Below, piece after piece: positions 8,340 through 11,563 of a DNA stretch of 56,449 nt; positions within the stretch are counted from its first letter, which is position 1; each line of letters starts with the position of its first letter. Origin of the DNA: Planctomycetota bacterium. GTDB taxonomy: Bacteria; Planctomycetota; Planctomycetia; Pirellulales; Lacipirellulaceae. The stretch covers positions 1 through 56,449 of the forward strand of contig JBCCXZ010000020.1 in NCBI GenBank assembly GCA_039190745.1, read 5' to 3'. Under the pieces are notes generated by a model, which saw only the letters and a program-made list of their open reading frames with translations, was not told the origin of the DNA and did no database searches. The translations under genes were made by a program, and so were the position numbers.

Positions 8340-9173
8340 TCAGGTGGAAACAGGTTCGGAAACGGCCCGTCGGATCGCCGTCAGGCGGGTCATCAGCGGC
8401 TCGATGTCTGCGAGTGCGATCATGTTGGCGCCGTCGCTGGGCGAGCGGTCTGGCTCGGGGTGGGTTTCGCAGAACAGCCCCTCGGCTCCGATGGCGACCG
8501 CGGCGCGGGCGAGCGGCTCGACCATCTCGCGGTTGCCGCCGGTGGCGCCGCCCAGGCCGCCGGGCTCCTGCACGCTGTGGGTGGCGTCGAACACCACGGG
8601 GGCGCCGAGGGATTGCATCTGCGGGATCGAACGCATGTCGTTCACGAGCCGGCCGTAGCCGAAGAAGGTGCCGCGTTCGCAGAGCAGCGCGTCGCTGCAG
8701 CCGGAGGCCTCGAGCTTCGCGAGGGCGTGCGCCATGTCGCCGGGGGCCATGAACTGGCCCTTCTTGACGTTCACGGCGCGGCCCGTCTGGGCGGCCGCGA
8801 CCAGCAGGTCGGTCTGTCGGGCGAGGAACGCGGGGATTTGCAGCAGTGCGCAGACTTCCCCGGCGGCGGCGGCCTGGGAGGGCTCGTGGATGTCGGTCGT
8901 GACCGGCAGGCCGGTCGCGTCGGAGACCACCTTGAGGATGCGGAGTCCCTCCGACAGCCCGGGGCCGCGGTAGGAGCCGATGCTGGTGCGGTTCGCTTTG
9001 TCGAACGAGGCCTTGAACACTAGCTGGACAGAGACCGCTTCGGCCACGCGGGCCAGTTCCTCGGCGATCTCGAGGGCCCCGGCTTCGTCTTCCAGCACGC
9101 AGGGGCCGGCGATCCAGAGCAGCGGCTCGTCGCGGCCGCAGAGGTAGTCGCCGATCCTGGCTGGGTAGTTCAT
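8340..9173 (-). CDS. kdsA: 3-deoxy-8-phosphooctulonate synthase
   Basis: [38 protein letters not shown] and FDATHSVQ motifs. Confidence 0.97.
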
Positions 9174-9356
9174 AAGTCAAAGGCTCATTCTGAGCCGGCG
9201 GAGAGGGCTTGGCCCACGGTGATTCCTGAGGCGGGCGAAGCAAGCACAGCAATATATACGCACGGATCAGTACGAACTACGCGGCTCGTGGGTTTCCGTT
9301 GGCTCCGCTTTGCGGATCGAGGCAACAGAATGAGCCTCCGATGGCTACGGGACGCT

Positions 9357-9369
9357 TCTCATTTTGAGA
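9357..9369. promoter_or_regulatory. Palindrome, possible enhancer (bEBP binding site)
   Basis: TCTCA-TTT-TGAGA about 235 bp upstream of the sigma54-like site; a similar half site TGTCTCA lies near 9524. Confidence 0.35.
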
Positions 9370-9601
9370 TGTTCGGAAGCGTCTTTCACCGTCGAGGCCC
9401 GGCTGCGGGGCGGAGTGGAGCACATCAAGGCACAGGCGGATTGAGATAATGCGTCGCAATGATGCGTTTCGGCTGCGGCTGGGCTTGCTCAAAGCCCTGG
9501 GAAGGCACGGTAATCGGCCGGTCTGTCTCACTCTAAATGTTTATCTGGAAAGGTTTTACGAGAAACGATCGGCATGCAAACCGGAGAGCTGGGTCCAGAA
9601 C

Positions 9602-9617
9602 TGGCACGGCAGATGCA
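9602..9617 (+). promoter_or_regulatory. sigma54 (-24/-12) promoter
   Basis: TGGCACG-GCAG-ATGCA versus consensus TGGCACG-N4-TTGCW: one mismatch, exact spacing, intergenic position. Confidence 0.7.
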
Positions 9618-9627
9618 GCTATTGGGA

Positions 9628-9804
9628 GCCGTGGCAGAGGGTTTGGGCGTCGGCGTCTTCGGACAGCGGGCCCAGGCAATTACTCCGCCACCCAACCTTA
9701 CTGGCCCGCGGGGCCTCGGATGATCTGTGGCCGATCGGTTCAATTGCCCCTGACCGAGCGACCAAGTCAAAGTGTATTTGGCTCATCCGAGGCCCGCTTT
9801 TTTT
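9628..9804 (+). ncRNA. Candidate structured small RNA of unknown family
   Basis: Follows the sigma54 site. 5' hairpin capped by a cUUCGg tetraloop (9655-9664); perfect 13-bp stem 9711-9723/9783-9795 enclosing two hairpins; T7 tail at 9798-9804. Confidence 0.55.
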
Positions 9805-9836
9805 GCGCGGGCGGTTTTCTTAAGATTGCCACCCGG

Positions 9837-11285
9837 CTAGTTGCCGCGTCTGGGCACTCGTAGTCCCCAAACCGCACCCGGGCCCGACGTGTAATCGTGG
9901 TAAGGCCGGCTGCGGGCCAGCGCCAACTCCCTCATGCCCGGTGCGACGGCCACTTCCCTGAATGTGCCGCCGTGGGCCTGGGCGATCGCCGCGAGCTGTT
10001 GCCGGTGGACTTGTTCCTGGCACCCCATGCCGATGGTGTGGACCACGAAATCGCGTCCCTCGGCCGCGAGAAGGGCGGCGAGCTTCCGTCCTGACGGGGT
10101 CGTCCGGACATCGCCGTCGGAGAGCAGGAACACCACCTCGGGTTTGAGCCGGGCCGCGGCCTCCATCGCGCGGTGGGCCGTGTTGCCGGTGCAGAACTCG
10201 ACGGTCTCGAACCAGACCGAGAGACGCCGTTTGGTCTCTTCATTGGGGCGGGCGAACTTGTCGGTCGAAGCCGGGTAGTACATCGGATAGATATCGTCGC
10301 TGAAGAACAGGACGTAGACCTCGTGCGAGGGGCCGAGTTGGTCGAGCGTATGCATAAGTTCTGCAAGGACGGTTTCCAGCCGGCCACGCTGCATGCTTCC
10401 GGAGTTGTCCAGGAGGAAGACTGCGCGGAGGCCGCCGACCGGTGCGCCGAAGAATCGGGAGCCCCCGTCGCCCCTCCGCCCAGGCCCGCCACGGCTGCTC
10501 CCGCGGCCTCGGTCGGATTCGAGTGCCAAACCGCCATCACCGAACAGGCCGGCCGTTTCCGCGGCAAAGTCGCCAACAGCGGGCGGAACGTCCGCGAGGT
10601 TGTCGGCCCCGAGCGTGCCCGCGAGTGCCAACTGATCGACCTCGACGGCCTCGCTGAAGTCCGCCAAGTCTTCCAAGGCATCTGGGGCGTCGTCTGATTC
10701 AACCTCGTCGAAGTCGATCGCGGGCTGCTCGGTGAAGTCGACTTCAAAGAGTTCTAGCTCTTCGGTGAAGTCTGCAGAAGGTTCGCTGAAAGAGAGGCTG
10801 ATCTCTGGCGGCAGCACGGTCTGGAGGCTGAGCAGGCTGAGCGTCGCGAATAGCGCAGCGTGGATGGTAAAGCTGACCGCCCAAGACCGATCGGGGCGTT
10901 TGTGTCTTTTACGTGGGGCGGATTTGCCGGCGTTCATACGGACCAGCTCGGCCCGTCGCTTCGCGGGTATCTTTCGACGCCGCCGGCCGCTTGGCCTGGT
11001 TGCGACTGCCAGACCTGAGTGAGATTGACCGTTCTCAGGTTGCCCTTCTTCTTCGGTCGAGGCTGGCGCCGGTTGGTTGCTGACTCCCGCTGACCGGTCT
11101 ACGGAGTTCACCGCAGGTTCTGCAGAGGGCTCAATCTTGGGCGGCTGCTCGACGGGGACGCCGTCGACGCGGAGGGCGCCGGCATCGACTTGAAGGCGGA
11201 ACGTCTCGACCTCGCTCGGCGCGGCCGGCGACGGCGTGTCGGACGAGTGGGTTTCGTCGGTCGGAGGCTTCACGCTGTCGGGCAT
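9837..11285 (-). CDS. Membrane-anchored VWA-domain protein
   Basis: TM segment SWAVSFTIHAALFATL, acidic linker, MIDAS motif LLDNSGSM, FLLSDG and VHTIGM. Confidence 0.85.
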   Translation of the reverse strand: MPDSVKPPTDETHSSDTPSPAAPSEVETFRLQVDAGALRVDGVPVEQPPKIEPSAEPAVNSVDRSAGVSNQPAPASTEEEGQPENGQSHSGLAVATRPSGRRRRKIPAKRRAELVRMNAGKSAPRKRHKRPDRSWAVSFTIHAALFATLSLLSLQTVLPPEISLSFSEPSADFTEELELFEVDFTEQPAIDFDEVESDDAPDALEDLADFSEAVEVDQLALAGTLGADNLADVPPAVGDFAAETAGLFGDGGLALESDRGRGSSRGGPGRRGDGGSRFFGAPVGGLRAVFLLDNSGSMQRGRLETVLAELMHTLDQLGPSHEVYVLFFSDDIYPMYYPASTDKFARPNEETKRRLSVWFETVEFCTGNTAHRAMEAAARLKPEVVFLLSDGDVRTTPSGRKLAALLAAEGRDFVVHTIGMGCQEQVHRQQLAAIAQAHGGTFREVAVAPGMRELALARSRPYHDYTSGPGAVWGLRVPRRGN

Positions 11286-11563
11286 GGCGACCACTGAGTA
11301 CCGGTGCTAGCAGCCGGGCCCGATCGTTTCGGTCGGGCGTGCCTTGAGTGTACCGCGCCCGGAAGGCGGGGGGAGCGGGTTCTGGGGGGACGGCGCCAAG
11401 CTGGCTGCGGTTCGGTTACCCCCCGATTGAGACGGATTCTCTGAACCGGGCGCCTGCCCCGTCCGATAGATATTGAGTTGGCGGCGGACGATCCGGGGGG
11501 GTGTCCGCTTCCATTGCGACGGCTTCCGCCGGCGCAGTCCATCTTCCGGCATCGACCCCCCGT

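Follow-up and report, generated by a model that had tools for sequence, protein, structure and literature searches.

What is encoded in the gap between a kdsA-like gene and a VWA-domain gene of this planctomycete? The window (the whole stretch of 56,449 nucleotides analysed here) contains a spacer of 663 bp, measured from the start of the kdsA-like gene at 9173 to the end of the convergent VWA gene at 9837. A preliminary description had put this gene-poor gap at about 660 bp. The kdsA-like gene (8340-9173, minus strand; DAHP synthetase I family, Pfam PF00793, E 8.6e-68) is a divergent neighbour outside the element under study, and the VWA-domain gene (9837-11294, minus strand; Pfam PF00092) serves as context only. 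We are almost certain that the element between the two is a real RNA gene. Judged from sequence comparison, it probably represents a new order-wide RNA family, sigma54-dependent, whose function is of a known kind and whose architecture is unusual.

The predicted transcript, 9628-9804 on the plus strand, folds at -77.7 kcal/mol (z -2.72). The folding signal sits in its 3' core rather than in its 5' hairpin: the core at 9701-9804 has a z of -3.65 with 0 of 200 shuffles folding as well, and the hairpin at 9628-9700 a z of -1.50 with 18 of 200 shuffles as good. The core consists of a closing helix P1, a linker of 5-8 nt, the hairpins P2 (9729-9763) and P3 (9765-9783; 5-6 bp with a loop of 6-8 nt) and seven U, which makes it a three-way junction. 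Both inner hairpins and the T7 (9798-9804) of the preliminary description were recovered. Its perfect 13-bp stem, 9711-9723/9783-9795, can be formed as well, but comparison favours 9708-9722 paired with 9784-9797, with one bulged G in the 5' strand, as the closing helix.

Pairing was evaluated on two alignments. In the first, of 46 sequences, 93.2% of the cells are paired, with two-sided changes at 22 of 31 pairs, and sliding the partners as a control lowers pairing to 28-46%. The second holds 76 distinct rows, with 93.9% paired and two-sided changes at 24 of 31 pairs; this alignment was fitted to the model and therefore leans to structure, and its rows were selected on invariant motifs. Covariation, which had been suggested earlier as a check, is thus strong in all three helices. 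In P1, whose two strands pair in both alignments, 96.3% of the cells are paired and two-sided changes occur at 6 of 14 pairs (8 of 14 in the second set); in both alignments they occur at 11 of 11 pairs of P2 and 5 of 6 pairs of P3. G-U outnumbers A-C in the alignment (102 versus 18 cells), which places the RNA on the plus strand.

The core measures 95-100 nt (model-aligned length 101-113, mostly 105-109). The P3 loop carries a near-invariant G at 9774 (98-99%) and is 7 nt long in 56 of 85 homologues. The U tract, the putative 3' end, is conserved: 81 of 85 homologues have at least five T among the final 8 positions of the model. The tract is preceded by a multibranch helix instead of a short hairpin, and no terminator was called at 9798-9804 in a simple scan. 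A pseudoknot between the P2 loop and the G-run of P1 was rejected since the G-run changes in 9 of 46 rows while the loop stays unchanged. A small ORF in the core is not supported either: the length varies by single bases and the stems covary. Some stop-free frame is found in 70 of 85 homologues, as expected of short GC-rich DNA.

With BLAST, the region found counterparts in 47 of 61 related genomes, nearly always limited to 9701-9809. A covariance model built from 46 cores found a match in 139 of 151 genomes (about 92%) assigned by record title to the order Pirellulales, with exactly one match in 136 of these, and none in 150 genomes from elsewhere in the phylum. The genome of the window (G000) has one copy. 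A broader model matched 21 of 25 order genomes; its lone 28.6-bit match among 76 genomes of the class outside the order lacks both loop and U tract and was put down to chance. In an additional pattern scan the carriers were, per record titles, Pirellulales (Lacipirellulaceae, Pirellulaceae and others), cultured members such as Lacipirellula limnantheis being included, and 79 of 80 loci among the matches listed passed the covariance model. The one that failed was in a record titled Paracoccus. Two full matches in records with proteobacterial titles closely resemble the copies of Pirellulales, and these records are probably mislabelled or mis-binned. Viral contigs and plasmids gave no match.

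For four of the 12 order genomes without a match the flanks were read. In G176 the kdsA gene abuts a tRNA-Thr(CGU) gene and both promoter and RNA are missing, which is a clean loss; the other three are rearranged at the locus. Three genomes of family f20 (G143, G055 and G074) have non-syntenic second copies with long leaders (94-126 nt), an altered loop, AUCCCCCUC, and a sigma54 box of their own.

The preliminary description had predicted a sigma54 box with a transcription start near 9628 and had called for a search for homologues with such a box. The -24/-12 promoter lies at 9601-9617 on the plus strand, where the window has its single match of YTGGCACRN5TGCW (a match arose in 1 of 100 shuffles), and the start is still predicted near 9628. 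A strict pattern, YGGCAY-N6-TGCW at most 157 nt upstream of the core, is present in 65 of 96 homologous loci, compared with 0 of 96 downstream and 0.1% of 5000 random windows of G000. When the pattern is relaxed, 87 of 96 loci have a box against a background of 4.5%. Gene, strand, fold and promoter type are thus established by conservation, and what we infer about mechanism goes beyond these. Retention across an entire order together with the promoter type is unusually deep for a regulatory small RNA, and its being kept in about 92% of the order genomes points to a core circuit.

Further upstream, an imperfect palindrome GTCTCA-n3-TGAGAC (9356-9370, two mismatches) is a candidate activator site. 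Among 21 intergenic sites in G000 with at most two mismatches it is the only one with a sigma54-like box within about 280 nt. CGTCTCA/TGAGACG occurs in 26 of 83 homologous upstream regions as against 1.5 in shuffles, counted over relatives that are not independent, and TGTTGCA words are likewise enriched upstream of the homologous boxes. At 9525-9560, about 50-75 bp upstream of the box, a GTCTCA half-site is followed by an AT-rich, putatively IHF-like element. Of 30 close homologues, 17 have GTCTCA..TAA at a distance of 75-78 bp upstream of the box, and IHF-like matches (at most two mismatches to the consensus) are most frequent at -70 to -51, with 21 and 20 of 83 loci. A second imperfect palindrome of the GTCTCA-n3-TGAGAC type lies at 9182-9196, immediately upstream of the start of kdsA.

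G000 encodes RpoN and six enhancer-binding proteins. Four of the six, those other than the two FHA-GAF proteins, were tested for loss together with the RNA and none was co-lost, and rpoN is kept in five of five RNA-negative genomes. No activator gene adjoins the RNA among the neighbours of the homologous loci. A prediction for Planctomycetia in PMC12316311, in whose accessible part small RNAs are not mentioned, has sigma54 sites enriched upstream of csrA, motility and chaperone genes.

The neighbourhood was compared across 96 homologous loci. A divergent kdsA or yegS gene lies upstream in 84; of the 12 others, four have less than 700 bp of flank and three are second copies. Downstream genes vary: a gene for a TPR protein with tandem RNA polymerase alpha C-terminal domains (TPR-alphaCTD) in 24 loci, a cyclophilin gene in 17 and the VWA gene in only 9. 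The TPR-alphaCTD gene is on the same strand as the RNA, and in all 24 of these loci the two are separated by a tRNA-Thr(CGU) gene. Because the downstream genes vary and this tRNA gene intervenes, we regard the RNA as a separate unit in an old locus and not as a leader, as had already been concluded from the convergent VWA gene. Its own promoter and 3' end, independent of the neighbours, are in this case supported by comparison. The TPR-alphaCTD protein itself (G000:C3:79321-80655) is encoded in single copy in 80 of 81 genomes of the class and in Pirellulales follows tRNA-Thr(CGU).

These data also bear on a cis-acting attenuator, in which a 5' GGCCC/GGGCC hairpin would compete with P1 and control read-through to the downstream genes, ancestrally tRNA-Thr and TPR-alphaCTD. 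Of 85 homologues, 61 allow the alternative hairpin to be drawn, and the TPR-alphaCTD gene is suitably oriented in the 24 loci above, but the hairpin costs 3.8-19.2 kcal/mol (mean 10.5), the 5' motif is unchanged where P1 changes, and the tRNA gene always separates RNA and TPR gene. No co-oriented gene follows consistently, as would be expected of a riboswitch or attenuator; which gene lies downstream varies from locus to locus, and it is often convergent, as in the window. Furthermore, family f14 keeps the downstream genes without the 5' motif and family f1 the motif without those genes. We consider an attenuator highly improbable.

The first domain of the preliminary description, a hairpin at 9631-9691 on the plus strand with a cUUCGg loop, lies where it had been placed, with one A-C mismatch in its outer stem, but neither hairpin nor UUCG loop is conserved and the leader is without sequence conservation. 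The distance from box to core is 0-137 nt (median 42.5) and at most 16 nt in 12 of 84 loci, which makes this domain a replaceable, dispensable leader. It is lineage-specific and differs even in a genome of the same genus, and 45 of 72 leaders of at least 25 nt fold with z below -2. The independent RNA of about 175 nt proposed earlier stands, by comparison, as an independent structured unit on the plus strand, but the conserved unit is only the core of about 100 nt at 9701-9804. The predicted transcript has a median of about 145 nt across homologous loci.

The RNA was compared with known families. The covariance models of Rfam 15 gave a best score of 16.2 bits (E 1.9) on positions 9100-10200 of the window, and on 15 homologous loci only a 32.6-bit microRNA match outside the core (gathering threshold 86), so that no family was matched in either case. 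That the element had not been recognised earlier as a tRNA, SRP RNA, 6S RNA, tmRNA or known riboswitch agrees with this, neither Rfam nor ARAGORN having a match here. SRP RNA was rejected as an identity: RF00169 does not match here, and G000 has its own copy at G000:C1 with 51.8 bits. In the 95%-complete G000 assembly no tmRNA was found by ARAGORN or RF00023; the gene may be unassembled.

Literature searches for RNA motifs of Planctomycetes returned only Rhodopirellula-1 (Weinberg 2010), described in the accessible text as of cis-regulatory type with an ACA/GAC/CGUU consensus around a variable region of 1-71 nt. None of the motifs of the RNA occurs in the consensus given there. Planctomycetes are not mentioned in the main text of two large motif surveys, one of them PMC11109978, nor in the supplement of the other. 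A search mostly without coverage of subscription journals gave no description of the RNA, and no trans-acting small RNA described for Pirellulales. The family is apparently undescribed.

It is very unlikely that the RNA functionally replaces 6S RNA, or mimics a sigma54 promoter to bind RNA polymerase. The distribution speaks for such a role: 6S RNA is present in 67 of 76 genomes of the class outside the order against 3 of 25 inside, none was found in G000, and its absence from the group has been reported in the available part of PMC5673643. Like 6S RNA (RF00013), the RNA is single-copy, lineage-wide, independently transcribed and structured, and CUGGCCCG and UUGC resemble -24 and -12 boxes. 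Fold and length differ, however: a 6S RNA is a long rod of about 180-200 nt with a central bubble and a match to RF00013, and this RNA has no central bubble, no such match and half the length. Moreover, 6S-like matches occur in 25 of 151 order genomes (6 above the cut-off), 22 of which also carry the RNA, the core profile does not match these 6S-like RNAs, and the -24-like 5' motif is lost in f14. The 6S-like RNAs of Pirellulales are divergent, 190-230 nt long and located beside larE/rny-like genes; at that locus G000 has only a gap of about 120 nt, and family f1 scored 0 of 12 for a 6S-like RNA.

A mimic of tRNA or Y RNA is just as hard to sustain, and we give it very little weight. The topology resembles a tRNA without D-arm and P3 has T-arm dimensions (5-6 bp, the 7-nt loop in 56 of 85), and the 5' motif can be likened to the Ro60-binding strand of Y RNAs. 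Against this, UUC/UUCRA in the P3 loop and a CCA end are found in 0 of 85 homologues, and ARAGORN finds nothing. A bacterial Y RNA goes with a Ro60/TROVE gene in the genome, usually adjacent; TROVE matches were obtained in 8 of 61 genomes, all partial, with none in G000 and none adjacent to the RNA.

The most invariant single-stranded element is the apical loop of P2, at 9744-9751, which the preliminary description had not singled out. This candidate recognition site (loop 9740-9752, unpaired probability about 0.9) contains UUGCCCCU; in 85 order-wide sequences CCC is present in 85, GCCC(C/U) in 81 and UUGCCCCU in 66. Natural variants among the homologues are CCUUGCCCUU, UAGCCCCUG, CACGCCCCUG and AUCCCCCUC. 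A seed had instead been proposed in the linker at about 9692-9707. Only its last part is retained, the 5' motif CUGGCCCG (9701-9708), single-stranded in the ensemble and found as TGGCCCG in 67 of 85 homologues; the remainder is not conserved, and f14 has lost the motif.

A conserved C-run exposed in an apical loop, as found here, is characteristic of trans-acting C-rich-loop small RNAs such as sX13, 6C and RsaE. By analogy with these we give about an even chance to Hfq-independent pairing of the loop with G-rich mRNA sites, the best mechanism we can offer. An enhancer-binding protein at the upstream palindrome, with DNA bending by IHF, would switch the RNA on in response to some signal. Where there is a 5' leader hairpin, it would only protect or space the 5' end. 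The rigid core would keep the RNA stable without Hfq and display the UUGCCCCU loop, which, probably assisted by a second contact through the CUGGCCCG tail, would pair with G-rich stretches near mRNA starts and alter translation or stability of one or several mRNAs.

In favour of pairing, the stems vary freely while the C-rich loop is almost fixed. The Hfq family is present in 2 of 151 order genomes and not in G000, and AGGGG is enriched just before predicted starts in G000 (67 versus 19). The changed loop AUCCCCCUC of the f20 second copies reads like an anti-ribosome-binding-site. The closest parallels, as far as the available text of the two sources goes, are sX13 of Xanthomonas (PMC3771888), whose C-rich loops act on G-rich motifs near start sites with Hfq dispensable, and 6C of Actinomycetota (PMC6486639), a C-rich-loop small RNA acting without chaperones: both are about 100-115 nt long, strongly structured, with a C-run in apical loops and no need of Hfq. 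They differ in having two or three separate C-loop hairpins, whereas this RNA has one C-loop in a closed three-way junction, together with a 5' motif, a sigma54 promoter and no sequence match in Rfam; its pairing role is a proposal.

Target searches took in the whole of G000 and, in other genomes, one in ten of the perfect-match sites. Ranking duplexes against 3067 predicted start regions of G000 (home-made gene calls) gave no outlier target, and a scan for perfect complements of the loop gave 54 sites in G000. In other genomes, 90 of about 900 perfect-complement sites before ATG were inspected and no start region recurred; the only matches were codon-driven ones inside atpA and a permease. 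One site resembling a tmRNA 5' end was rejected, as it falls within a protein gene in antisense orientation. Pairing that is short or imperfect, or that has many targets, may be compatible with these blank searches. In genome G054, AGGGGCAA-N2-9-ATG has 281 matches genome-wide against 2-31 in the other 45 genomes; presumably they belong to a REP-like repeat family.

Precedents exist for a different use of such an RNA. GlmY titrates RapZ, and CrcZ titrates Hfq/Crc. It is possible, though clearly less probable than pairing, that the RNA is a protein-binding decoy or scaffold, its junction holding the two C-rich strands and the P3-loop G in a shape read by a protein that is titrated in sigma54-driven bursts. 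This would suit the near-constant geometry given above by the model-aligned length, the invariant P3-loop G, the GCCC motif repeated in the RNA and the blank target searches. It would also suit the abundance of CsrA paralogues, of which all 35 genomes examined have 2-11 each; in G000 one csrA gene has a sigma54 box in front of it. The promoter layout is glmY-like: in the accessible part of PMC3045617, a sigma54 promoter, upstream activator sites and IHF sites drive the small RNAs GlmY/GlmZ of Enterobacteriaceae. Unlike those, this RNA shows no sequence or structure match to them and no adjoining activator gene, and Hfq is largely missing from the order.

The many CsrA paralogues are a setting shared with CsrB/RsmZ-type sponges. 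An unpaired GGA, however, is present in only 11 of 85 homologues and in none conserved, and the RNA is thus not a canonical CsrA sponge. Nor do CsrA counts fall in RNA-negative genomes; Ro60 offers no link, and one family (f14) has lost the 5' motif. A CsrA-receiver fusion is encoded in G000 at G000:C14:31766.

Fixed helix lengths, the invariant P3-loop G and order-wide retention exceed what a pairing seed needs and suggest recognition of shape by a protein. A bolder version, in our judgement unlikely, holds that the RNA does not pair with mRNAs at all and that the sigma54-inducible three-way junction would bind a core planctomycete gene-expression protein, coupling enhancer-dependent transcription to a global switch, for example the transition from swimmer to sessile cell. 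The partner could be, for example, sigma54-RNA polymerase, a CsrA paralogue of non-canonical type, or the TPR-tandem-alphaCTD protein found throughout the class, whose gene is the second one downstream in the ancestral locus.

Whether loop pairing, which we prefer, or protein binding is considered, the setting is an order mostly without Hfq yet rich in CsrA paralogues and sigma54 activators. Cultured carriers, predicted ends, natural loop variants and natural losses make the RNA directly testable, and the alignment is ready as a new Rfam family. Intergenic sigma54 boxes elsewhere in G000 (C7:66066, C5:40144, C78:10935 and others) precede what we take, from sequence motifs, to be a csrA paralogue, a sigma70-family gene and a flagellar rod-like gene. 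Several have no gene close behind, and these could be further small RNAs.
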